A stretch of 37,908 nt of DNA, from positions 1 through 37,908 of the forward strand of contig DATHRW010000270.1 in NCBI GenBank assembly GCA_035464955.1. Reading direction: 5' to 3'. Below the pieces are notes generated by a model that was not told the DNA's origin, ran no database searches, and saw only the letters and a program-made list of their open reading frames with translations. The stretch comes from Gemmatimonadales bacterium. GTDB lineage: Bacteria > Gemmatimonadota > Gemmatimonadetes > Gemmatimonadales > GWC2-71-9. Made by a program: the position numbers and the translations under genes. Below, piece by piece: positions 3,240-37,908 of this stretch; positions within the stretch are counted from its first letter, which is position 1, and each line of letters begins with the position of its first letter.

Positions 3240-4823
3240 ATGGCTCTTCTCCGCCGCCTCGCTGCGGCCGGATTCCTCGCAGTGGCCGCACTGGGGTGTA
3301 GCGATTCGCTCTCGACTCCCCCAGACTCCGGCCCGCCGCCGGCTGGCCGGCCGGTGTTGGCTCCCACGTATCGCCCCACCGGCCGCGCCGCAGCCGGCGA
3401 CGTGGCGGTGCACCTCTTCGAGTGGCGCTGGGCTGATATCGCCGCCGAATGTGAAACGGTACTCGGCCCGGCCGGCGTTACGGCGGTGCAGGTTTCGCCG
3501 CCGCAGGAGCACAGCATCGTCCCGGGCTACGACTGGAGCGAGCGCTACCAGCCGGTAAGCTACAGCATCGCGCGGAGCCGCTCCGGCACCGGGGTCGAGT
3601 TTGCCGATATGGTCAATCGCTGCCGGGCGGCGGGCGTTGGCATCATCGTCGACGCGGTGATCAACCACATGACCAACTTTCCGAGTCCGGGTGTCGGGAG
3701 TAACGGCACGGCCTACACCAAGTACAACTACCCCGGCCTCTACACGCCTTCCGACTTCCACCCAGCCTGCACGGTGTCGAATTACCAGAGCGCGGCCAAC
3801 GTGCAGGACTGCGAACTACTGTCGCTCCCCGATCTCGACACGGGGCTCGCGTCGGTACGGCAAAAGATCGCCGATTACTTGCTCATGCACGTTCGGCTGG
3901 GCGTCGCGGGCTTCCGCATTGACGCGGCCAAGCACATCCAGCAGGTGGAGCTGGACGACATCCTCGCCCTCGTCAACTCGACCCTTGCCAGCGAAGGGCG
4001 CCCACTGCCGTACGTCTTCCTCGAGGTCATCGGGGGAGCGGGTGAAGCGCTATCTCCGCGCGACTACTTCGGTGCCGGATATCGTTCCGGCGGTGCCGCG
4101 GATATCACCGAGTTCACCTTCGTCGGTGTGGGTAACAAGTTCCGCGGCGTAAGCGGCGAATACATCGCCCAGCTCAACCCGAACGGCACCTCCGGGAACC
4201 GGTTTTCCGAGGCCGCCTGGGGACTGATGCCGGCCGACAAGGCCGTGGTATTCCTGCAGAATCACGACACGCAGCACCAGTGCGGTATCGGCTATCGCGA
4301 TGGCGATGCCTTCCGACTCGCCAACGTGTGGATGCTGGCACAGCCCTACGGGTACCCGTCCATCCTGTCGAGTTACGCCTTCGATTGTCCGCTCGGGAAC
4401 AGCATGGGCCCGCCGTCCGACGCCAACGGCAACACCAACCCGGTGGCCTGCGCGGCGAGCCTGGAGACGGCAACGGTAGGCCAGTGGGTCTGCGAGCACC
4501 GCGACCCCTACATTCGGAACATGGTGGAGTTTCGGCGAGTCGTCGCGGGCACCGATATCAACCACTGGTGGGACAACGGCGCCAACGCCATCGCCTTCTC
4601 GCGCGGCGACCGGGGCTTTGTGGCGATCAACCTCGAAGGCGCGACCATGACCGCGGCGATCGCCACGGGCTTGGCACCCGGCACCTACTGCGACCGGCTG
4701 ACCGGAGGCGTGGCAGGCACCTCCTGCGCGGGCACGTCCATCGTGGTGGACGCAACCGGCACGGTGCAGCTCAGCCTGGCGCCGGGTACGGCCATCGCCA
4801 TCGACACGACGACGCGGATCTAG
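3240..4823 (+). CDS. GH13 alpha-amylase, lipoprotein (animal/actinomycete-like amylase type)
   Basis: Lipobox in MALLRRLAAAGFLAVAALGC. N-terminus VHLFEWRWADIAAECETVLGPAGVTAVQVSPPQEH matches the animal/Streptomyces-type amylase signature. GH13 regions I-IV are present: DAVINHM, GFRIDAAKH, FLEVI, FLQNHD. Confidence 0.9.
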   Translation: MALLRRLAAAGFLAVAALGCSDSLSTPPDSGPPPAGRPVLAPTYRPTGRAAAGDVAVHLFEWRWADIAAECETVLGPAGVTAVQVSPPQEHSIVPGYDWSERYQPVSYSIARSRSGTGVEFADMVNRCRAAGVGIIVDAVINHMTNFPSPGVGSNGTAYTKYNYPGLYTPSDFHPACTVSNYQSAANVQDCELLSLPDLDTGLASVRQKIADYLLMHVRLGVAGFRIDAAKHIQQVELDDILALVNSTLASEGRPLPYVFLEVIGGAGEALSPRDYFGAGYRSGGAADITEFTFVGVGNKFRGVSGEYIAQLNPNGTSGNRFSEAAWGLMPADKAVVFLQNHDTQHQCGIGYRDGDAFRLANVWMLAQPYGYPSILSSYAFDCPLGNSMGPPSDANGNTNPVACAASLETATVGQWVCEHRDPYIRNMVEFRRVVAGTDINHWWDNGANAIAFSRGDRGFVAINLEGATMTAAIATGLAPGTYCDRLTGGVAGTSCAGTSIVVDATGTVQLSLAPGTAIAIDTTTRI

Positions 4824-4842
4824 CCACGGAGGAATTCCATAG

Positions 4843-6243
4843 ATGCGGAATCGTCTCTTCATAGCTGCGGCCTTCCTCTCGGTGGCGTGCTACTCCACCA
4901 CGGCACGGCCCGCGGCGGACCAGGTCCCGGCGCGCGTCCTGGCACCGGACACGTCGTGGATCGCCCTGGCACCGGATACCTCCTGGGTTGCCCGCAGCAC
5001 CATCTATGAACTGTTCGTCCGAGATTTCTCCCCCACCGGCGATCTTCGGGGCGTGATCGACGGGCTCGACCGGATTCAGGCAGTCGGAGCCAACGTCGTC
5101 TGGCTCATGCCGATCTACCCGATTGGGGTGGTAGGCCGGAAGGGAACTCTTGGATCGCCCTATTCGGTGCGGGACTACTACGCGATCGATTCCGCGCTGG
5201 GCACCGTGGCCGACTTCCGGGAGTTGGTGAGTGCCGTGCATGCGCGTGGGATGAAGCTCATTCTCGACTGGGTGCCGAACCATACTGCCCTCGATGCCGT
5301 CTGGGTTCTGGAGCACCCGGACTTCTATGTCCGGGACGACGAGGGTAAGCCAATCGTCCCGCACGACCTCGAAGGCAATCCCACCGACTGGACCGATGTG
5401 GTGCAGCTCGACTATCGCAATCCCGCGTTGCGCCGTGCGATGATCGCCGCCATGCGCCACTGGCTGGTTGACCTCGGTATCGACGGCTTTCGCGTGGACG
5501 TGGCCGGCTTCATTCCCGACGTCTTTTACCGCGAGGCCATTCCGCAGTTGCGGTCCTCCGTCCTACGGCCAATCCTCCTGCTCGCGGAGTGGGGCGACCT
5601 CAAGATGCACCGGCTCGGCTTCGACCTCACCTACGCGTGGGATTCGTACAGCCGGCTCAAGGAGGTCTGGCGTGGTGCGTCGGCTTCCATCTTCGTCCCG
5701 GCCGAGGTGGCCGACAAACACGCGATACGACCAGGGGGGATGCGGCTCCGCTTCACCACCAACCACGACGAGACCGGCTGGGACGATCCGCCGCTCGAGA
5801 TCTTCGGCAGAGTCGCAGGCGCGCGGGCGGCCTTCGTCGCGATGGCACTCTTACCCGGCCGGCCGCTGATCTACAACGGACAGGGCGTCGAGAGCCCTCA
5901 GAAGCTCCGCCTGTTCGAGCGGGACCCCATCGCATGGGACCAACCTCGAGCGGCCGAAGCCCGCGCCCTTTACCGGCGGGTGCTGGAGTTGTCGCGCACA
6001 CACTCGGCCTTTCGTGCCGGGGACCTCCGCGTGGTCGAGACCAGCGCCCCCGACGATGTGATCGCCTACCGCCGGGGCAACACTGCCGTGCTGGTGAACG
6101 CCCGGCCGCGGGAGGTACGCATCATAGTCCCCGGCTTCGACGTGGCGCGCTCGCTCGATCTGCTGTCGGGCCGCACCCAGCAGGGCGACACCGTCATGCT
6201 GCCGGCCTACGGTGCGATGGTGCTCGAGCGGCGGGGGCGCTGA
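4843..6243 (+). CDS. GH13-family alpha-glucan hydrolase, lipoprotein
   Basis: Lipobox in MRNRLFIAAAFLSVAC. GH13 regions are present: LDWVPNHTA, GFRVDVAGF, LLAEWG, FTTNHDE. GGAGGAA Shine-Dalgarno about 9 nt upstream of the ATG. Confidence 0.8.
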   Translation: MRNRLFIAAAFLSVACYSTTARPAADQVPARVLAPDTSWIALAPDTSWVARSTIYELFVRDFSPTGDLRGVIDGLDRIQAVGANVVWLMPIYPIGVVGRKGTLGSPYSVRDYYAIDSALGTVADFRELVSAVHARGMKLILDWVPNHTALDAVWVLEHPDFYVRDDEGKPIVPHDLEGNPTDWTDVVQLDYRNPALRRAMIAAMRHWLVDLGIDGFRVDVAGFIPDVFYREAIPQLRSSVLRPILLLAEWGDLKMHRLGFDLTYAWDSYSRLKEVWRGASASIFVPAEVADKHAIRPGGMRLRFTTNHDETGWDDPPLEIFGRVAGARAAFVAMALLPGRPLIYNGQGVESPQKLRLFERDPIAWDQPRAAEARALYRRVLELSRTHSAFRAGDLRVVETSAPDDVIAYRRGNTAVLVNARPREVRIIVPGFDVARSLDLLSGRTQQGDTVMLPAYGAMVLERRGR

Positions 6244-28574: not shown

Positions 28575-29093
28575 TCAGTCTTCCGACCACACTGCCAGTT
28601 CGTTTCCGCTTGGGTCCGCGAAATGAAAGCGGCGGCCGCCGGGAAAGTCGAACGGCTCCTCGACGATCCGCCCGCCCGCCTCGCGCACTCGCCTGAGGGT
28701 CAGGTTGAGATCGCTGGAATACAAGATGACCAATGGCCCGCCGGTCGATACCTCCGGCACGAGCCGGAATCCTCCGGCCTCGCCGTCCGGCTTTCGAATG
28801 CCGGCATAGTCCGGTCCGTAATCAGTGAACGTCCAGTCGAATGCCGTCGCGTAGAATCGTTTGGACTCGGCCATGTCCGTAACGGAGAATTCGATGTAGT
28901 CGATACTGTGATGAACGTGAGTGTCGGCTGGCATGTTCTGTGACTCCCTTGATGTCTGCGGCGCTTCCCCGCCAGGCCTGCACGAACACAGAAACGCCGC
29001 CGCGAGCAGGAGCGGGGCCCTTTCCCAGGCCCTGCGATGGGTCCGAGCTACGACACGGCCTGGGTGACTCGCGCTCGTGCCAAGCGGATGCAT
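28575..29093 (-). CDS. VOC-family (glyoxalase/bleomycin-resistance fold) protein, possibly lipoprotein
   Basis: C-terminal 119 aa are VOC-like (IDYIEFSVTDMAESKRFYATAFDW...PGGRRFHFADPSGNELAVWS). The ATG at 29093 has GGGAGG about 7 nt upstream and gives a signal with LLLAAAFLCSC. A cytoplasmic form could start at 28934, which also has an AGGGAG Shine-Dalgarno. Confidence 0.7.
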   Translation of the reverse strand: MHPLGTSASHPGRVVARTHRRAWERAPLLLAAAFLCSCRPGGEAPQTSRESQNMPADTHVHHSIDYIEFSVTDMAESKRFYATAFDWTFTDYGPDYAGIRKPDGEAGGFRLVPEVSTGGPLVILYSSDLNLTLRRVREAGGRIVEEPFDFPGGRRFHFADPSGNELAVWSED

Positions 29094-29296
29094 CACTGAC
29101 CTCCCTTCGGACGAAGGCTCAGCCGGCCCCGAACCGCGACCGGGCCTCAATGCTCCGCGACCATACCGCCGGTTCCCACCTGCCGCAAGCGCCATGGCCG
29201 CCGAATGCCGGTATCTTACCTGTTTCTGCCCACCCGCTCCATTGGCCATGGGGATGCTATGAAGACACTGACCGACCACGCGGCGGCAACCACCCG

Positions 29297-30979
29297 ATGA
29301 GCGCGCCGCTTCGCGCCCTCGAGCGAATCCACCGGCAGTTCGGACCGGGCCTCGCTGAGCGGAAGGCCATCCTGCTGGATCGCCTGGCGTCGCGGCGGCT
29401 CCCTACCGCGCGCGCGGTGAGCCGGCTCCACGAAGTGCTCTGTTACCTCCGCGCCTATCCGGATTCCCCCGCAGTCTTGGAGCGGGTAGAACAGATGCTG
29501 ATGCAATTCTCGGGGCGGCGCGACCTTCGCCGCCACGCGGCGGAACTCCAAGACAGCGGAATCGCGGGGACCCCGACCTACTATCCGTTCTTCCACCCCA
29601 CGGCGGTGTGGCTGGCCTCCCGCTGGCCGTCGCGGCTCACCATCTCATGGCCGGACCTGGAGTATCCCGACCGGCTGGACCGGATCCTCCCCCTGCTCGC
29701 GCTCTGGGCCGAGACTCCAGGACTGGACGAAGCCCCGCTGTCGGTCCGCGACTGGATCCGGCGGATGAAAGGCCCCAAGGAAACCGACGCCGTCTTCCTG
29801 GTTCGCAGGATGGAAGCGGTGCGGGCGGAACTGCCGGTAAGGGAAGTGGTGTTCGAAGACTTGGGGATCATGTTCAAGCTGTCGTCGGGTCCCGACACTC
29901 CCGCTCGCACCCACGCCCGGGTGCCGCGCGGCCGGGCACACTACGTGACCCGTCCGCTCGACACCGCGCGCCCGGACCTGCGACTGGCCCTCCGAGATCG
30001 TCCCCGCCGCGTGACCGCGGTGCCGCGCACCGAGGCCCAGCGGCTGATCGACCTGGCCAGGGAAGCCATGGTGGCCCGGAGCCGCGACCTCGATACCTTC
30101 GCCTACGGCGATCCCGACGATGTTCGGATCGTGGACATGGGGGACGGGCTCGAATTCGTCGCCATCGGCCTCATTCCCGAGCGCCGGCTCCTGCTCGAGG
30201 CGGTCTACGGGTTTCTCACGCTCAAGAACGGCGTACCGATCGGCTACGTGCTGAACAGCGCGCTCTACGGTTCCGCCGAAGTGGCCTACAACGTGTTCGA
30301 CACCTATCGGGGCGGCGAGGCCGGCCGGGTCTACGGCCAGGTGCTGGCCATGCTCCGCCATCTGTTTCGGGCCACCGCGTTCACCATCTATCCGTACCAG
30401 CTAGGCGGGGAGGGGAACGACGAGGGGCTCAAGTCCGGCGCCTGGTGGTTCTATCAGAAGCTCGGCTTCCGGCCCCGCGACCCAGAGGCCGTGACCCTCA
30501 TGAAGTCCGAACTGGCTCGGATGCGTCGGTCCGCGAGCCATCGATCGACCCGGGCCACGCTGAAGCAACTGGCCGAGCACAATATGTACTACCACATCGG
30601 CCGGCCTCGGGAGGACGTGATGGGGGTGTTTCCGCTCGCCAACGTGGGGCTGGCGGTGACCGACGCCTTGGCCCGGCGCTTCGGCGCGGACCGGGACGCC
30701 GCCGAGCGGGTGCTCGACCGGGAAGTGGCCCGCATGCTCGCGACCGGCAGCCGGCGCGGCTGGAGCGCGGGCGAGCGGCTGGGGTTTGCGCGCTGGGCTC
30801 CGCTGGTCGCTGCGCTCCCGGATGTGGCCGCTTGGACGCTAGCCGAGCGCCGGGCGCTCGCACGGGTGATGCGCGCCAAGGGCGGGCGCCGCGAGTCCGA
30901 CTTCGTGCTCCGGTTCGATGCGCACCGCAGGCTCCGGCGGGCGGTGGCCGCCCTGGCCCGGGATGCCCGGGTCCCATGA
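29297..30979 (+). CDS. Hypothetical 560-aa protein with a GNAT-like segment in its C-terminal half
   Basis: ATG at 29297; the upstream part of the 679-aa ORF overlaps the VOC gene region. No family recognised. The segment LKNGVPIGYVLN...YRGGEAGRVYGQVLAMLRHLF...SGAWWFYQKLGFRP resembles an acetyl-CoA-binding GNAT core. Confidence 0.6.
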   Translation: MSAPLRALERIHRQFGPGLAERKAILLDRLASRRLPTARAVSRLHEVLCYLRAYPDSPAVLERVEQMLMQFSGRRDLRRHAAELQDSGIAGTPTYYPFFHPTAVWLASRWPSRLTISWPDLEYPDRLDRILPLLALWAETPGLDEAPLSVRDWIRRMKGPKETDAVFLVRRMEAVRAELPVREVVFEDLGIMFKLSSGPDTPARTHARVPRGRAHYVTRPLDTARPDLRLALRDRPRRVTAVPRTEAQRLIDLAREAMVARSRDLDTFAYGDPDDVRIVDMGDGLEFVAIGLIPERRLLLEAVYGFLTLKNGVPIGYVLNSALYGSAEVAYNVFDTYRGGEAGRVYGQVLAMLRHLFRATAFTIYPYQLGGEGNDEGLKSGAWWFYQKLGFRPRDPEAVTLMKSELARMRRSASHRSTRATLKQLAEHNMYYHIGRPREDVMGVFPLANVGLAVTDALARRFGADRDAAERVLDREVARMLATGSRRGWSAGERLGFARWAPLVAALPDVAAWTLAERRALARVMRAKGGRRESDFVLRFDAHRRLRRAVAALARDARVP

Positions 30980-31970: not shown

Positions 31971-31993
31971 GGATGCGTCCAGCGTTGGGAGCT

Positions 31994-32100
31994 GCCTGAC
32001 GGGTTCTGTGACCGTGGCGAGCCACCTGGCCCGTCTGCTCACAAATCAACGACTTCCGCCCAGCCAGGCAAGTCCGCCCATTGCACGAAGGGGCCAGGGC
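31994..32100. repeat. Repeat copy A: roughly 105-nt homolog of copy C
   Basis: aatcaacgacttccgc (32044-32059) is identical to 37783-37798. The flanks align with copy C: cgtgcaatgggcgg vs cgtgcagtggccgg, and acgggccaggtggctcgcc vs gcgggccggctggcccgcc (minus-strand reading). It ends with GCCTGAC (31994-32000). Confidence 0.4.
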
Positions 32101-32222
32101 CAGCGCCCGGGCGGGAGGCTCAGGCCGCCGGTTGCCCGAACGTGAGCCACGATCAGCATCACCACCAGTGGAAGGCCGACAACCACCACGGCAGCGGCAA
32201 CCACGACCCTCCTGATCTTCAT
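32046..32222 (-). CDS. Possible 58-aa small membrane ORF (not in ORF track)
   Basis: ATG at 32222 preceded by GGGAGG. N-terminal TM segment in MKIRRVVVAAAVVVVGLPLVVMLIVAHV. The C-terminal third is encoded by repeat copy A, so it may be fortuitous. Confidence 0.25.
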   Translation of the reverse strand: MKIRRVVVAAAVVVVGLPLVVMLIVAHVRATGGLSLPPGRWPWPLRAMGGLAWLGGSR

Positions 32223-32288
32223 CGACCTCCCGCCCTGAGCGGCCGCTGTACGCGTCGCGCGTCATTGGGCGGGCTGGCTCATCCGCTT

Positions 32289-32327
32289 GCTCACAAATCA
32301 GCGACGATTGGGCCGTGTGGGTTGAAC
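32289..32327. repeat. Repeat copy E: partial copy sharing a 17-mer with copy A, followed by a GTTGAAC core-like heptamer
   Basis: gctcacaaatcagcgac (32289-32305) matches gctcacaaatcaacgac (32037-32053) at 16 of 17 positions. GTTGAAC sits at 32321-32327. Confidence 0.4.
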
Positions 32328-32362
32328 GAATCCCACGCCAGCGGCGGATCAGACCAAACCAG

Positions 32363-34660
32363 TCACGGCAGCGTCGCGCTCGACCTCTGGGCCTCGATCT
32401 CCTGACCGCCCTGGTGAATCACCAGGGCGGTGGTGTTGCCGCCGGCATCCGTCCGGAACGTGATCTGCACGGCCGCTTCGGTGAGATAGAATTCGGTCTC
32501 GGATGTCGGCCACAGCTGGACCCTGTCCTGTCCGGTCGGCTGCGCCCAGAGCGTGGTGTCTTCCCGCGTGATGACCAGCTCGCCGAGCCCCGGAACCTGG
32601 TACGTCCCCACGTGCCGATCCAGCACGGCCTGGCTCAGGTGCACCGGCTTCGGCTGCGGCCAGACGTTGTCGCGGGGGTTGCGGTCCGGAAAGCGCTTGT
32701 GGGGATCGAGCGTGATCTTCGCGATCTGCCGCCCGCCAAACTCGAGGTCCGCGTCGAAGGTGCGGCCGCCGTTGAACCAGACGTCCACCGGGAAGGTGAC
32801 CAGAGCGGTTGTCGAATCGGTCATCACGCTGTTTGTCATGGCGACGATGGCCGGTCCGGTGGGCTCAAATTCCACCTGGAGCACGACCGGCGACGGCATC
32901 TCGCCGTCCTGCCGAACCGTCACCACGGTGTGCGGCCCTTGGGTCGTCACCTTCTGAAGCGAGGCGTCGACCGACTCGGTCGTCCACAGCCAGTAATACC
33001 AGAACCAGCCTAGATCCTGGTGCAGCGCGGTGTTCATGAAGAACGCGTAGTCCCAGGGCGTGGGGTGCTTGAAGCGCCAGGCATGGGCGTAGGCGCTGTG
33101 CGCCCGCCAGACGGCGCTGTCGCCGACGATGCCGCCCAGCATGGACAGCATCATGGGCGCCTTGCCGTAGGCCACGAACCCGTACATCGGACCGGCGTAG
33201 TTCTCATCCCACATGAGCGGCGGCTCCTGCTCGTTGCCGCTCATCTGGCCGTACGACTGCCCCGGCCCGTCGAGCCCGGCGTCCGGTGCGCGGTGGTTGC
33301 GATCGTTGGAAGACAGGATGTTCATGTACTGATTGAACCCTTCGTCCATGAATCCCCACCACGTCTCGTTCACCCCCACCATCATCGGCCACCACTCGTG
33401 GCCGACCTCGTGATCCGCCGCGCCCAGCGCCGACATGATGAACATGGGATACTCCATGCCCAGCTCGGGGCCGTCAGCGACCGTCAATTGCGGGAAGGCA
33501 TAGGGCATCCAGAGTTGCGAGTAGAACTCCAAGGCATGGCGCACCCGTTCCCCAACCTGATCGAAATGATGAGGCGCCGCTTCGTGGCCGGGCAGGTAGA
33601 GGATGTGGACCGGGATGTAGCCCTTGCCTGGGATGTTGGCTCGCGTGGCGTCCCAGGCGTAGCTCTTGGACGTGGCCCAGGCCACGTCGGCTACGCTATC
33701 GGCGACGAAATGCCACCTGAGGCGAGTGCCCGGGGCGGTGGATCTTCCGGGCCCCAGACTGTCGGGATCGACAACATGAATCTGGTTATCGGACTCCAAC
33801 ACCGTGGCGAGACGGGCGCGCTCGGCCTCGGTCAGCACTTCGTCGGGATTCTGTAATACACCGGTCGCCCCCACGATCCAGCCCGCAGGCACCTCGTACG
33901 TCACGTCGAAGTGTCCGAAATTGTTGTAGAACTCAGCACTGCCCAGATAGGGATCCGTGTCCCAGCCCTTGTAGTCGTCGTACACGGCCACTCGCGGGTA
34001 CCATTGCGCGACCTGGTACACCGTATCGGCCGAGCGGCCCATGCGCAGGCCGCGCCCCGACGGAATCAGCGGCACCTGAAACTGCCACTCGATGTCCAAT
34101 GTGGCAGAGCCGTGAGCGGCGACCGGTGTGCTCAACCGTACCCGGGCGCTGGTCGTATTGAAGTTGTGCGCCGTCGGCTCCGTCGGCGGTCCCGATGGAC
34201 GGCGAAACCCGCCTTCGCCGCGCGCGGCCGGCGTCGTCAAGTCGATGGTCTGACCGTCAATGGTCAGGCTGGTGACGTTCATGCCGCTGGTGATTTCGGA
34301 CACCGACCTGTTGCGCGGCGAGTTCTGTGCAAAGATGTTCTGGTCGAGGCGGAAGTAGATGTCCCGCATGGCCTCCGGGCTGTTGTTGTGCAGCACAATG
34401 GTCTCTCTGCCCGTCACGATGGAGGTGGCCGGGTCGAGGCTCGCATGGATCCTGTAATCCACCGACGTCTGCCAGTAGTTGGGCCCGGGCCGACCGGTCG
34501 AGTCGCGCGTGCCCGCTTGATGCGCGCGCTGGATCATGTTGGTGATGGGAATGGTGCGGCGAATCGCGCGGGGCGGCTGCTGGCCGAACGCCTGGTCCGT
34601 CCAATTGGGAGCGAGCAGCCCGGCGGTGGCGAGAATCAGGAGAGTGCGTTGCATGGTCAT
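32363..34660 (-). CDS. Secreted M1-family (gluzincin) zinc metallopeptidase
   Basis: Signal MTMQRTLLILATAGLLAP. Zinc motif HEVGHEWW plus downstream FMDEGFNQY (HExxH-18-E). Confidence 0.85.
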   Translation of the reverse strand: MTMQRTLLILATAGLLAPNWTDQAFGQQPPRAIRRTIPITNMIQRAHQAGTRDSTGRPGPNYWQTSVDYRIHASLDPATSIVTGRETIVLHNNSPEAMRDIYFRLDQNIFAQNSPRNRSVSEITSGMNVTSLTIDGQTIDLTTPAARGEGGFRRPSGPPTEPTAHNFNTTSARVRLSTPVAAHGSATLDIEWQFQVPLIPSGRGLRMGRSADTVYQVAQWYPRVAVYDDYKGWDTDPYLGSAEFYNNFGHFDVTYEVPAGWIVGATGVLQNPDEVLTEAERARLATVLESDNQIHVVDPDSLGPGRSTAPGTRLRWHFVADSVADVAWATSKSYAWDATRANIPGKGYIPVHILYLPGHEAAPHHFDQVGERVRHALEFYSQLWMPYAFPQLTVADGPELGMEYPMFIMSALGAADHEVGHEWWPMMVGVNETWWGFMDEGFNQYMNILSSNDRNHRAPDAGLDGPGQSYGQMSGNEQEPPLMWDENYAGPMYGFVAYGKAPMMLSMLGGIVGDSAVWRAHSAYAHAWRFKHPTPWDYAFFMNTALHQDLGWFWYYWLWTTESVDASLQKVTTQGPHTVVTVRQDGEMPSPVVLQVEFEPTGPAIVAMTNSVMTDSTTALVTFPVDVWFNGGRTFDADLEFGGRQIAKITLDPHKRFPDRNPRDNVWPQPKPVHLSQAVLDRHVGTYQVPGLGELVITREDTTLWAQPTGQDRVQLWPTSETEFYLTEAAVQITFRTDAGGNTTALVIHQGGQEIEAQRSSATLP

Positions 34661-34671
34661 AGCCCGGTGGG

Positions 34672-34816
34672 AGTCACAGTGGTCGACCGACGTCCGGCTT
34701 GAGATATCACATCAGGACGTCTTCGGCGAGGCGTCGGTTTCAGCATCTCATCACAACGACAAAGCTGACCACCGCGATCCGAATTGCGGGGACGGGGCCT
34801 GCCTCGGGCTGTGACT
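34672..34816. repeat. Repeat copy D: 145-nt intergenic element bracketed by an 8-bp perfect inverted repeat
   Basis: AGTCACAG (34672-34679) pairs with CTGTGACT (34809-34816, overlapping the DUF885 stop codon). There is an internal 7-bp stem GACGTCC (34689-34695) / GGACGTC (34715-34721). The core ctcatcacaacgac (34747-34760) is related to the family core. Confidence 0.35.
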
Positions 34817-36662
34817 AGCGAGCCTCGCTTCGGAGGTACTCGTCGATGTTCCTGGCGAGCACGTCGAGCGGCACGTTGCCGCCGCGCACCACGGCATCGT
34901 CGAACGCCTTGAGGTCGAACGTCGCGCCGAGCGACGCCCTGGCCCGCTCGCGCTGGCGATTGATCTCGCTGTGGCCCACCTTGTAGCCGCAGGCCTGTCC
35001 CGGCCACGAGCAATACCGGTCCACCTCGCTGGCGACCTCTTCCGGGTTCGACCCGTTCACGTCCACGAAGTACCTGACGGCCTGCTCGCGGGTCCAGCGC
35101 TTCGCGTGAATGCCCGTGTCCACTACCAACCGGCAGGCTCGGAAGGCGATCGATTGCAGGTAGCCGAGGCGCCCGACGGGATCGTCGTCGTAGGCGCCGA
35201 GTTCATCGGCGAGCTGCTCGGCGTAGAGCGCCCAGCCTTCCGAGTAAGCGTTGAACGCGAGCATCTGACGGATGAGCGGCATCGCGTGGGTGTACTCGCC
35301 TTGCCAGATGTGACCGGGAATCGCCTCGTGGAAGGTCAAGTCCGCCAGGCTGTACTTGCTGTGCAGGGCAGTGGTCCTGAGGTTGATCCAGAATCGGCCG
35401 GGGATCGTTCCGTCGATCGACCCCGCGCCGCCGTACGCACCCGGAGCGCCCGGCTCTTCCTCGGGCGGCAGCCGCTTCACCTCCATGTGTGGATCGACCA
35501 CCGTGTCGAATGCGCGCGGCATCTGGGCCTCGATCCAGTCGAGCCGCTCCTCGATGAAGGCCATGATTTCGGCGCGGCCCTCGTCGCCTTCGGCGAACTG
35601 GTAGCGGGGATCCGTCGCCAGGCCCTTCATCCGTTCGCCCACGGAGCCCTGCGAGTAGCCGACGTGCTTCAGGAGCGTGTCCATCTGCGCGTGCAGGCGC
35701 TCGAGCTCGCTCTGGCCCAGCCGATGGACCTCGTCCGGTGACATGGAGGTGGTGGTCGAGGCCTTGAGCGCCCAGCGGTAGAAGTCCTCGCCGTGGGGCC
35801 GCGCCGCGATGCCGGCGTCGGTCGTCGCTACCGCGCGCTGTGTCTCGAGTTCGCGGATCTGCCGATCGAGCGCCGGCGCCACCTCCTGCACGGCGATCGT
35901 CCGCGCCCGGGCGGCCCAGTCCTCTGGAATGTCCTTCGACCGTCGCTTGATCGACTCGACGAGGATCCCGCCGTCGCGTGCGTTCGTCGCGGAGAGGCTC
36001 ATCTGCCGGACCGCCTTGTCGATCAGGAATGCCGGCGGGACGAGCCCCTGTTCACGCGCCGTCTGGATGCGACTCAGTTCGCCGTCCAGCTGCTTCGCGT
36101 ACGACTGCAGGCGCGCGAGATACGCCTCGGCGTCGGCGGCGCTCTCGATCCGATGATCGCTATCGAGGAACCGGGGGATGTCGAGATAGGCGCCGACATT
36201 CTGGATCACGACGTACGGCGTGTTGCGCCAGCCTCCGACGGTGATGTCGCCGTAGGGGAGCGCGAAGCCTTTGAGTGACGTCGCGTAAGCACTCCGCACC
36301 ACCTCGAAGCTGGTGCGCGTTGCGTATGACAGGGCGCTCGCGTCGAAGGCATTGAGTCGGGCCAGGTCTGTTCGGAGCCGTTCCGCGATCCGCTGCTGGC
36401 CGGCCGCGGACCGATCGGCCAGTTGGGAGCGGAGGGCGGCCCTCGCCCCGGTATCGATGCCGAGCGAGGTTGCCTGCTCCGGGACCAGGCGCAGGAGATT
36501 GTCCGCCACCTCGTCGAGCAGTGCCTGGGCGTCGACGTCGTTGGGCGTGGTCGGCCGCGCCGCGCCGCCACGGCTCATTGCGGGGATGAGTGGGATGGCG
36601 GCTACCGCGGATCCCAGGGCTGCGAGGACCTCTCGGCGGGTGAGGAATCGTCGGTGGGTCAT
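34815..36662 (-). CDS. DUF885-family protein (metallopeptidase-like), TAT-exported
   Basis: The ATG at 36662 gives the twin-arginine leader MTHRRFLTRREVLAALGSAVAAIPLI. DUF885 hallmark HEAIPGHIWQ. Length 615 aa. Confidence 0.8.
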   Translation of the reverse strand: MTHRRFLTRREVLAALGSAVAAIPLIPAMSRGGAARPTTPNDVDAQALLDEVADNLLRLVPEQATSLGIDTGARAALRSQLADRSAAGQQRIAERLRTDLARLNAFDASALSYATRTSFEVVRSAYATSLKGFALPYGDITVGGWRNTPYVVIQNVGAYLDIPRFLDSDHRIESAADAEAYLARLQSYAKQLDGELSRIQTAREQGLVPPAFLIDKAVRQMSLSATNARDGGILVESIKRRSKDIPEDWAARARTIAVQEVAPALDRQIRELETQRAVATTDAGIAARPHGEDFYRWALKASTTTSMSPDEVHRLGQSELERLHAQMDTLLKHVGYSQGSVGERMKGLATDPRYQFAEGDEGRAEIMAFIEERLDWIEAQMPRAFDTVVDPHMEVKRLPPEEEPGAPGAYGGAGSIDGTIPGRFWINLRTTALHSKYSLADLTFHEAIPGHIWQGEYTHAMPLIRQMLAFNAYSEGWALYAEQLADELGAYDDDPVGRLGYLQSIAFRACRLVVDTGIHAKRWTREQAVRYFVDVNGSNPEEVASEVDRYCSWPGQACGYKVGHSEINRQRERARASLGATFDLKAFDDAVVRGGNVPLDVLARNIDEYLRSEAR

Positions 36663-37028
36663 TGGCCACGGCTCCGGGTGAGAGACTCCCGATCGCATCT
36701 CGAATTCGATGCTGACGATTCGGCGGTGGATGGTAGGAGAAGGTCCGAGCGGAACCGTCCGAGGTCAAGGGGAGCCGCCGCCGCACCGGTCACGCAGCCC
36801 GTCGCGCATGTAGGCTGGTTTCTGGCGACGACTGAAGAAGCCAACGAAGACGAGCGTGACCACAATCTGCGCAAGAATGATCAACGCAATGAGCGTAGGC
36901 CGGTTCGCGAGCGCAGACTCAGGCACCGTGACCTGAGGCGATAGCAGGGATAGGTTGGCGACGTTGAACAGGACGATGAGTGTAAGAAGTGCCCTGCCGC
37001 CCTGGTAGACCCGCCCGCCTGTGCACTA

Positions 37029-37088
37029 AACAACGACTTCCATCAGACTGGTAAGGCCCGGGCCACTGCACGCGGTGGTTAGGCTGCC
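37029..37088. repeat. Repeat copy B: half-copy homologous to the right half of copy C, ending in GTTAGGCTGCC
   Basis: caacgacttcc (37031-37041) and ccactgcacgcgg (37063-37075) are identical to 37787-37797 and 37818-37830. It ends with GTTAGGC (37078-37084), abutting the mazF stop codon. Confidence 0.5.
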
Positions 37089-37421
37089 TTACGCTGCAAA
37101 CATCTCCTGCAGCACCGCGAGCGATTGGGTGACGGCCTTGGATGAAAGCTTGCCAAGGCGCCGGACCAGGCGACGAGTGTCGACGGTCCGGAGCTGGTCC
37201 AGCACGACAACGCCCGACCGCTTCTGAAAGCGACAGGGCACTCGAAATGGGTAGGGATGGCGGCCGGTCGTCATCGGGGCGACAATCACCGTCGTCAGGT
37301 GTTCGTTGAGTTCATTGGGCGATACGATCACGCACGGTCGTGTCTTCTTGATCTCGCGCCCGAGCGTTGGGTCGAGCGCGACCAGGAAGACGTCACCGCG
37401 CCGTGGCCATGCGGTCACCAC
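37089..37421 (-). CDS. mazF: MazF/PemK-family type II toxin (mRNA interferase)
   Basis: PRRGDVFLVALDPTLGREIKKTRPCVIVSPNELN...VIVAPMTTG...VVLDQLRTVD is the classic PemK/MazF pattern. The GTG start overlaps the antitoxin stop (GTGGTGA). Confidence 0.85.
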   Translation of the reverse strand: MVTAWPRRGDVFLVALDPTLGREIKKTRPCVIVSPNELNEHLTTVIVAPMTTGRHPYPFRVPCRFQKRSGVVVLDQLRTVDTRRLVRRLGKLSSKAVTQSLAVLQEMFAA

Positions 37422-37663
37422 TGCCAGTCCGTCTTGTCGAACTCAGTCGATACGAGCCCGTCGAGCACGCCCTCTCCCCCTCGTTGCCGAATCTCCTGTG
37501 CTGCTTCAGCCCATCCCGCCCGGGGCGCAGCCGAGGCGGCAAGGAGGATCCCCTCCGGCTCGAGGCGCAACTCGACCTCTTCGCCGAGTCCGGCCTGTTC
37601 CAGGAGGGGTTTCGGGATCCGGATACCCTGCGAGTTTCCGATACGGACGATGCGAGTTTTCAC
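37415..37663 (-). CDS. mazE: AbrB/MazE/SpoVT-type antitoxin
   Basis: MKTRIVRIGNSQGIRIPKPLLEQAGL is a swapped-hairpin AbrB-type DNA-binding N-terminus. GGAGG Shine-Dalgarno 8 nt upstream of the GTG. 7-nt overlap with the toxin gene. Confidence 0.8.
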   Translation of the reverse strand: MKTRIVRIGNSQGIRIPKPLLEQAGLGEEVELRLEPEGILLAASAAPRAGWAEAAQEIRQRGGEGVLDGLVSTEFDKTDWQW

Positions 37664-37669
37664 GGGTGA

Positions 37670-37710
37670 GCCTCCGCAATGGTAACCACAATGTAATTAC
37701 CTGCGGAGGC
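37670..37710. promoter_or_regulatory. Probable MazE/MazEF operator: 9-bp perfect inverted repeat spanning the -10 region and the Shine-Dalgarno
   Basis: gcctccgca (37670-37678) and tgcggaggc (37702-37710) are exact reverse complements. A nested near-palindrome ggtaac..attacc lies between them. Confidence 0.4.
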
Positions 37711-37718
37711 GTGTGCAA
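37690..37718 (-). promoter_or_regulatory. Sigma-70-like promoter for mazEF (TTGCAC - 17 nt - TACATT on the minus strand)
   Basis: The -35 TTGCAC is the reverse complement of 37713-37718. The -10 TACATT is the reverse complement of 37690-37695, with exact 17-nt spacing. It lies in a locally AT-rich island about 30 nt upstream of the antitoxin start. Confidence 0.4.
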
Positions 37719-37733
37719 GTAGGTGGAAGGGCA

Positions 37734-37839
37734 GCCTAACGAATTCCGCGTCAGCGGCGGGCCAGCCGGCCCGCCTCAGGCCAATCAACGACTTCCGCTG
37801 AAACCGCAAGGGCCCGGCCACTGCACGCGGCTGTAAGGC
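37734..37839. repeat. Repeat copy C: 106-nt imperfect palindrome with attC-like architecture
   Basis: The ends are GCCTAAC and GTAAGGC. The 18-nt arm (37746-37763) pairs with the 20-nt arm (37811-37830) with one mismatch and two bulged bases. It shares a 16-mer with copy A and about 50 nt with copy B. Confidence 0.5.
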
Positions 37840-37908
37840 AGCGCCGCACCTTATCTAGTGTGACACACCAGGTGTCTGATGAAGGTACGTGTCGTCAACA
37901 AGTTGCTT

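Follow-up and report, generated by a model that had tools for sequence, protein, structure and literature searches.

In sedentary chromosomal integrons, toxin–antitoxin (TA) cassettes with promoters of their own form a recognised and enriched group believed to guard against cassette loss, and the Vibrio cholerae superintegron carries 19 TA cassettes (PMC13108822). Integrons have also been reported in Gemmatimonadota (PMC8618304), and groups of attC sites without an integron integrase are classified by IntegronFinder as clusters of attC sites lacking integron integrases (CALIN; PMC4889954). Here we describe a mazEF operon near one end of contig DATHRW010000270.1 from a Gemmatimonadales bacterium, the entire 37,908 bp of which were analysed and are referred to below as the window. 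This operon is very probably a TA gene cassette of a chromosomal integron of Gemmatimonadales, located near the end of the array that is decaying and distal to the integrase; the short inverted repeat around the genes is made up of the R-box cores of two attC sites plus four pairing bases. An initial annotation of the window had pointed to self-promoted TA cassettes as a known hallmark of large chromosomal integrons, in agreement with the literature (PMC13108822). The features of immediate concern, numbered by position in the window, are the following.

37730–37740: right arm of the inverted repeat; R' core of attC D and opening bases of the mazEF cassette (minus strand: TTAGGCTGCC).
37664–37729, minus strand: candidate promoter/operator region inside the cassette, proposed from palindromes and from conservation in relatives.
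37415–37663, minus strand: mazE antitoxin gene, 82 aa, AbrB/MazE/SpoVT fold family (PF04014 MazE_antitoxin, E-value 1.7e-8).
37089–37421, minus strand: mazF toxin gene, 110 aa, PemK/MazF endoribonuclease family (PF02452 PemK_toxin, E-value 1e-29, full length).
37078–37088: left arm of the inverted repeat; R'' GCCTAAC (37084→37078, minus strand) of the cassette's own attC and four bases, GGCA, pairing with the cassette start.

The perfect 11-bp repeat lies exactly where the initial annotation had placed it, with GTTAGGCTGCC at 37078–37088 and its exact reverse complement GGCAGCCTAAC at 37730–37740. Between the arms we found only mazE, mazF and 66 bp of upstream DNA, and the left arm abuts the stop codon of the minus-strand mazF (TTA, 37089–37091), both as had been described. 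The accompanying argument that such a repeat within 700 bp is improbable by chance was mistaken for the window as a whole, in which 39 k-mer pairs formed perfect 11-mer inverted repeats with arms ≤ 1 kb apart, compared with 24 ± 5 in first-order Markov simulations. The repeat by itself is therefore unremarkable window-wide, and this abundance in GC-rich DNA, together with the lack of such a bracket in ∼60 of 74 usable mazEF relatives from metagenomes, is what would be expected if a chance inverted repeat surrounded an ordinary chromosomal TA module. As a tight bracket of one given mazEF pair, however, the repeat is rare: when the flanks of the 74 homologous loci were shuffled, ≥ 11 nt was reached in ∼4 of 2220 shuffles (∼0.2 %). 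In the ∼10–14 relatives that do possess a bracket, of 8–12 nt, it always begins at a GTT core and in the same position, and both arms of the window repeat fall inside significant matches to an attC model. Along with the arrays of the attC family described below, these findings effectively refute a chance origin, which we consider extremely unlikely. As some relatives are bracketed and the rest are not, members of this mazEF lineage occur as cassettes in some cases and as ordinary modules of the chromosome in others.

Just outside each arm a longer direct repeat is present, and a 21-base pattern derived from it was used to scan one genome per GTDB species. Several Gemmatimonadales metagenome-assembled genomes (MAGs) were found to carry co-oriented arrays of 3–7 sites at a spacing of 300–2500 bp, and 43 copies of the family align at ∼89 % identity, with a site length of ∼106 nt. 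Conservation begins exactly at ...GCCTAAC and stops exactly at GTTAGGC..., the flanks being unrelated. In the consensus fold, R'' is followed after 2 nt by a 6-bp stem, a bulged G and a 7-bp stem leading to a variable centre, and the return arm is then separated from R' by 5 nt. Integron attC sites are built in just this way. The R'' and R' boxes are complementary (GCCTAAC...GTTAGGC in the family, with one mismatch in attC D at the right arm and a displaced R' in attC C at the left arm), and the imperfect hairpin shows the 2-nt/5-nt spacer as well as an extrahelical base on the AAC arm of the top strand. Furthermore, the co-oriented arrays contain mostly single ORFs (open reading frames) in sense, with the longest ORF per array interval being sense in 20 cases and antisense in eight, and every clear long ORF being sense. 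The integron core sequence that the arms had been said to contain is thus accounted for, each arm being the R-box end of an ∼106-nt member of this attC family. Single matches to the 21-base pattern in Bifidobacterium, Burkholderiales and others were set aside as coincidental; in ∼20 Bifidobacterium genomes (L006, L011, L012, L015–L021 and others) the pattern matches once, the gap being 19 nt every time, and the match is presumably to a conserved gene that fits the pattern by coincidence.

Further support comes from the sequences on either side of the sites. An inverted repeat of ≥ 10 nt between the flank of one site's R' and that of the following site's R'' was present in six of 28 adjacent pairs (21 %) compared with 3.4 % of random pairs, bearing out in the family arrays the earlier claim that the first bases of a cassette complement the R'' box of its own attC. 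The 11 nt of the window repeat fit such a same-cassette pair, ≥ 11 nt being common to only 1.6 % of random pairs of sites from the family. In 11 site pairs that have one flank in common, within or between MAGs, the other flank was unrelated in all 11, and cassettes therefore reassort at these sites.

In order to place the window in relation to this family, a covariance model (R1) was built from the 43 copies and the whole window was searched with filters off; partial sites were further delimited with a profile of the family using nhmmer. This yielded 3–4 attC sites, all on the minus strand like the window ORFs.

37734–37839, minus strand: attC D, essentially intact; covariance model 98.9 bits, E-value 4e-24, full length (model span 37728–37845).
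37012–37084, minus strand: attC C, 5' arm and centre only; covariance model 34.0 bits (span 36974–37090), 13 broken pairs in the 3' arm.
32321–32350, minus strand: B2, displaced 3' arm of attC C; profile positions 83–110, ending with R' GTTCAAC (32327→32321).
32245–32318, minus strand: B1, partial attC with its 5' arm lost; profile positions 54–108, nhmmer 21.3 bits, E-value 2e-7.
31994–32099, minus strand: attC A, full length but decayed; covariance model 59.8 bits, E-value 7e-14 (span 31988–32105).

On the top strand, attC D runs from R'' GCCTTAC (37839→37833) through a 2-nt spacer, a 6-bp stem (CCGCGT), a bulged G and a further stem, and its return arm consists of ACGCGG, AATTC and R' GTTAGGC (37740→37734). 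It folds end to end as single-stranded DNA, aligns to the 43 family members and is identical in a contig of the same locus from another sample (L001, which adds 89 bp). attC D is part of the upstream cassette, in which an NAD(P)-binding-like ORF extends to ∼37857. This ORF to the right of D (37846–37908 of the window, L001:1–143) finishes in ...ISRADVADFMLKQRVDETYLHQTPGVSH*, 18 nt before the R'' of D, and in its last residues it is similar to the C-terminal end of NmrA/SDR-like proteins of the NAD(P)-binding type; such an order of ORF followed by attC is the usual arrangement of a next cassette. Between the window and L001 the ISRADVADFMLKQRVDETYLHQTPGVSH ORF differs at several bases, and the mazEF cassette is nearly identical. 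At the other end of the array, B1 directly abuts the R' of B2 with no ORF in between, has kept only its centre and 3' arm, and scores a non-significant 10.3 bits in the covariance model as a whole site; it may be an empty or collapsed cassette. Another site keeping only its 3' half was seen at L127:3239–3384. Beyond B2 and B1 there is a 58-aa ORF, then the decayed attC A (R'' CCCTGGC, R' GTCAGGC, ∼11 broken pairs) as the last recognisable site of the array, and then ordinary genes. As such, the window sites look like the distal, decaying end of an array.

An alternative that these searches bear on is that the repeats represent a dispersed palindromic element, such as a repetitive extragenic palindrome (REP), a bacterial interspersed mosaic element (BIME) or something like a miniature inverted-repeat transposable element (MITE), or else a regulatory palindrome or terminator, with GTTAGGC being coincidental. 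An imperfect ∼106-nt palindrome located between genes would suit such an element, as would the absence of an integrase from the window and of any Rfam match, a scan of 30.9–37.9 kb having returned only a chance microRNA match and no matching family. The other copies, however, do not stand singly; they occur in tight, co-oriented arrays, one of them directly after an integrase that passes the TIGR02249 cutoff, and the boxes RYYYAAC and GTTRRRY are the exact limits of their conservation. From cassette to cassette the flanks vary together, and cassettes reassort at the sites. Moreover, the covariance model search of positions 1–31900 gave nothing significant, and this absence of further copies does not fit membership of a REP or MITE family. 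We therefore regard a dispersed or regulatory palindrome as very unlikely.

The integron reading is also supported by integrase genes in other arrays. In L032, an 859-kb contig from MAG MFD09779.bin.2.16, an array of the window's attC family starts ∼400 bp after a tyrosine recombinase gene, the stitched product of which scores 450.7 bits on the NCBIfam model TIGR02249 ('integron integrase', cutoff 265). We also noted a possible attI core, GTTAGAC, ∼180 bp downstream of the stop codon of this intI. A second link is provided by L003, a 4.67-Mb contig (ERZ25072999) encoding a MazF (P0009) that is 81 % identical to the window MazF. The array in which it lies comprises at least 11 repeats and contains numerous TA pairs and duplicated cassettes, together with three IS110 transposases. 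This array ends at an IntI with 411.7 bits on TIGR02249 and a full-length alignment with VchIntIA (PDB 2a3v, E-value 3e-84). The L003-type mazEF unit is identical in four contexts (L003, L004 and twice in L005), and on either side the sequence in common breaks off within CTAAC|GGTT; the unit is therefore a mobile cassette with crossover in the G|TT core. The proposal that the window mazEF is an integron TA cassette is upheld by both links, namely a family attC adjoining an intI that passes TIGR02249 and a homologous mazEF in four contexts. Occurrence of the same cassette in other contexts was seen for the L003-type mazEF and, between MAGs, for other cassettes of the family; for the window cassette, L001 represents the same locus and public runs gave no alternative junctions. 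Within L003:1–20330 there are several duplicates (a pair of 157 and 64 aa three times, RHH-PIN twice and DinB twice), and all TA cassettes of L003 lie on the strand opposite to that of the other cassettes.

The minus strand of the window is the top strand, and on this four lines of evidence agree. First, the bulged base is found on the AAC arm of the minus strand, and an extrahelical base on that arm marks the top strand (Nivina et al., PMC5027507). Second, the intI of L032 points in the same direction as this strand and is located upstream of the array, as it is in the boundary-mapped L003. Third, all clear long ORFs in the family arrays are sense to this strand. Fourth, the only near-identical attC interiors (0.99, twice) occur in pairs that have the upstream flank in common; in the duplicated cassettes of L028 the attCs differ on both sides, and pairs between MAGs were used for orientation instead. 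With the minus strand on top, crossover therefore takes place at G37740|T37739 in the R' of D, and 37084→37078 is therefore the R'' of the cassette's own attC, site C, which follows mazF.

A different geometry was implied by the initial annotation, which took the plus-strand GTTAGGC at 37078 as a core. In that arrangement the plus strand would be the top strand, the cassette would extend 37079→37839 with D as its own attC and mazEF inverted, and it would be a cassette with an almost intact attC that could still be mobile. The inverted repeat is symmetrical and fits both geometries, attC D is intact, and in L003, L004 and L005 the homologous mazEF unit travels with the attC upstream of mazE and is hence inverted there. 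All four lines of evidence set out above nevertheless speak for the opposite strand and identify 37078–37084 as an R'' inverse core. In addition, all window ORFs are on the minus strand, and on the plus strand the R' of D would read GTAAGGC, without GTT. The reversed geometry thus appears unlikely. Likewise, the 663-bp stretch bounded by the arms was presented as a discrete unit and turns out to hold only the cargo and R'', a cassette including its attC.

With the minus strand as the top strand, the proposed order is the attC D core GTTAGGC, the cassette start at T37739, the promoter/operator, mazE, mazF and attC C, beginning with R'' GCCTAAC. On excision as a circle, a cassette's own attC acquires the 3' half of its R' box from the first bases of the cassette, which are therefore complementary to the R'' of that attC; hence the inverted repeat seen between the two ends of the cargo. 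The integrase and the remaining cassettes would be located beyond the contig end at 37908.

Several observations weigh against the integron reading and have to be set beside this evidence. There is no integrase, attI or Pc in the 37.9-kb window, the contig ending inside the array. Only D is intact, with A, B and C decayed or broken, and even D has a mismatch in its R box, the R'' reading GCCTTAC. The bulged bottom-strand base is a C in place of the usual G. In L032, intI (4589–5535) is spread over three frames with two frameshifts, and may be a pseudogene or reflect long-read indel errors. A strict sigma-70 scan of the region upstream of mazEF did not call a promoter. In public sequencing runs neither an excision joint nor an empty site was detected for the window mazEF, and the block of genes that interrupts attC C (see below) has neither significant terminal inverted repeats nor a transposase within 32356–37006. 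Finally, with 3–4 attC sites, several of them degraded, and no intI, the contig taken alone would be a CALIN. It is unlike a CALIN in that it ends inside the array, so that intI may be missing as an artefact of assembly, and in that the same attC family adjoins intI in a related MAG. These points notwithstanding, we retain as very probable that the window mazEF is an integron TA cassette.

The structure of the array on the far side of mazF bears on whether this cassette can still move. The 5' arm and centre of attC C follow the gene as expected, and the remainder of the site is separated from them by a block of genes.

32356–37006, minus strand: block interrupting attC C; 4.65 kb, three ORFs, 5-bp direct repeat at the junctions.
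36765–36926: ORF for a 53-aa membrane protein, in the block.
34815–36698: DUF885 gene, in the block.
32363–34660: M1-like peptidase gene, in the block.

By blast, positions 14–41 of D match 32325–32352 (B2) and positions 42–118 match 37010–37087 (C), the two matches being contiguous in D coordinates. In the profile hidden Markov model, C alone covers positions 4–86 with 57.0 bits, the sequence in place of its local 3' arm being unrelated, and a chimera of the 5' part of C and B2 reaches 77.0 bits over positions 4–109, compared with 79.7 bits for the intact D. The best junction between C and B2 is 37010/32352, and AGACC occurs as a 5-bp direct repeat at both junctions of the block (32351–32355 and 37007–37011). 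Judged by these alignments, the cassette's own attC is split in its terminal loop by the block. Both junctions are kept in metagenome contigs of ∼95 % related strains, and the splitting event is therefore old. As the 3' arm and R' of the site (32350→32321) are 4.65 kb away, the attC hairpin therefore cannot form; the cassette lacks a complete, foldable attC of its own, and without the hairpin that the integrase requires this copy would most likely be fixed in place. Of the earlier suggestion that the bracket marks a single mobilisable cassette, the cassette nature thus stands and the mobility does not: the window mazEF is a cassette by descent and probably can no longer be mobilised or excised alone. 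It is also conceivable, at low probability, that breaking up the attC of a TA cassette with a block of genes, with a 5-bp direct repeat, has been selected for as a means of locking a stabilizing TA pair into an array.

As to the block itself, a transposon was considered and rejected, in that there is no transposase, the terminal inverted repeats are not significant (score 20, 95th percentile of controls 19) and nothing more than the 5-bp direct repeat was found. DUF885 was likewise rejected as a cassette: its orthologs do occur in different neighbourhoods, but it has its own promoter and terminator and no attC. These orthologs (L125, L126, L127 and L129; 88–93 % nucleotide identity) have only the gene and 10–75 bp in common with window positions 34793–36774, and the neighbours of DUF885 differ in every ortholog locus. 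In L127 the gene is located ∼700 bp past three attC sites of the family, on the same strand, and the distal end of the array may ancestrally have bordered DUF885 as it does there. We further observed that 34970–36823 (1854 bp, taking in the greater part of DUF885 together with its promoter and some of the 53-aa ORF) is absent in ∼95 % related strains, contigs from runs X2, X3 and X6 joining 34969 to 36824 at a joint without microhomology.

The genes within the bracket have the hallmarks of a type II MazEF system, with PemK/MazF and AbrB/MazE domains encoded in an overlapping operon, antitoxin gene first, in which mazE and mazF share 7 nt. The window MazF has thousands of homologs, and matches MazF/Kid/PemK chains in the PDB with E-values of 1e-12 to 1e-9; for MazE the corresponding value was 0.003 (7d2n_E). 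In an exact-protein lookup the window MazF had no match, and MazE matched only L001, the same locus on 1.6 kb. Upstream of mazE we identified a −35 element (TTGCAC, 37718–37713), a 17-nt spacer and a −10 element (TACATT, 37695–37690), a 9-bp inverted repeat GCCTCCGCA/TGCGGAGGC (37710–37702 and 37678–37670) that flanks the palindrome GTAATTAC, and the Shine–Dalgarno sequence GGAGG at 37675–37671. From its conservation in relatives, this region probably provides the cassette with a promoter of its own, and the palindrome, likewise conserved, is a candidate operator. The pair would constitute an addiction module that penalizes loss of the surrounding part of the array.

The bracket is present in six relatives (L114, L108, L045, L046, L098 and L064). 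The full sense layout of the window is found in four of them (L114, L108, L046 and L064): an upstream attC ending in GTTxxxx, a promoter over an operator palindrome, mazE, mazF, a stop codon, xxxxAAC and a complete attC. The promoter is conserved in these same four, and TTGACA-17-TACATT plus the operator palindrome is kept in L114, L108, L098, L046 and L003. Around the cargo, the attC families differ in their stems (CCGCGT, CCGCAT and GGCGTT, with GTTGTT in L003) and retain the bulged G, and compensatory stem changes are present in L114, L108 and L046. L003 has the cargo inverted; in the window and in the four relatives with its full layout it is in sense. The same cargo with its promoter, set between GTTxx...xxAAC brackets at almost constant distances from the start and stop codons, is thus associated in one orientation or the other with unrelated attC families, at least four in number and each specific to a lineage, and one might suppose that bracketed mazEF cargo is swapped or flipped independently of the attC body, or that attCs are rebuilt around a constant cargo. 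We hold this to be improbable; if true, it would be relevant to the origin of cassettes, a problem still without a solution.

With regard to its wider context, the contig continues for 69 bp beyond D and breaks off within the array, the break at 37908 being caused by repeats. The mazEF locus is present in soil and sediment metagenomes, run X1 containing this strain at ∼100 % identity. In public runs the depth over the arms is 2–5 times that of the flanks, and the arms are therefore multi-copy; run X4 has mazF, mazE and D in one uninterrupted stretch with the next gene. Contig ends at 37083/37084 and 37730/37731 were examined as alternative junctions and rejected, as they match only 24–32 nt of conserved attC arm and so represent other attC copies. 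Elsewhere in the window, positions 1–24500 of this 65 % GC genome contain a SusC/SusD-type starch/maltodextrin utilization locus (a TonB-dependent receptor, SusD, several GH13, GH77, GH97 and GH2 proteins, MFS and SSF transporters, and NhaA). At 28940–30979 on the plus strand there is a 679-aa ORF without a Pfam domain, overlapped by long alternative ORFs on both strands at 69–70 % GC, which makes it a doubtful gene.

These findings offer a worked example of the Gemmatimonadales chromosomal integron lineage, in a phylum whose integrons are listed in surveys but little described, along with a defined attC family and a covariance model for it. For annotation, they mean that the genes in 31.9–37.9 kb are to be read as integron cassettes and remnants of an array. 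The comparative set, comprising one TA cargo with several attC families in both orientations plus a split attC, could inform work on cassette formation and fixation. Nothing here would surprise a specialist, and the importance is modest.

The locus is a known kind of element, made distinct by its lineage-specific attC family, the co-directional integrase seen in L032, the C bulge and the interrupted attC. With the TA cassettes of V. cholerae it shares a two-gene type II TA pair, by all appearances self-promoted, between chromosomal attCs, as well as R'/R'' complementarity and a presumed role in stabilizing the array. It differs from them in its Gemmatimonadales host, in an attC family with no sequence relationship to the V. 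cholerae repeats (VCRs) and in a bottom-strand bulge that is C, not G. Furthermore, the L032 integrase points in the same direction as the cassettes rather than away from them, and the attC of the window copy is interrupted, which probably leaves this copy fixed. The L003 mazEF cassette is the nearest counterpart, with the 81 % identical MazF, a homologous promoter/operator (GTAATTAC) and a GTTAG...CTAAC bracket at nearly equal distances from start and stop; it is unlike the window cassette in belonging to another attC family, in its inverted cargo and in being demonstrably mobile, in four contexts. Compared with the structurally characterized MazEF, Kid-Kis and PemIK systems (PDB 1ub4, 1m1f and 4mdx, among others), the window pair is alike in the MazF/PemK fold family as judged by sequence, the AbrB-type MazE, the antitoxin-first order, the gene overlap and the palindromic operator candidate, and differs in that its MazF matches solved structures only at an E-value of ∼1e-12.

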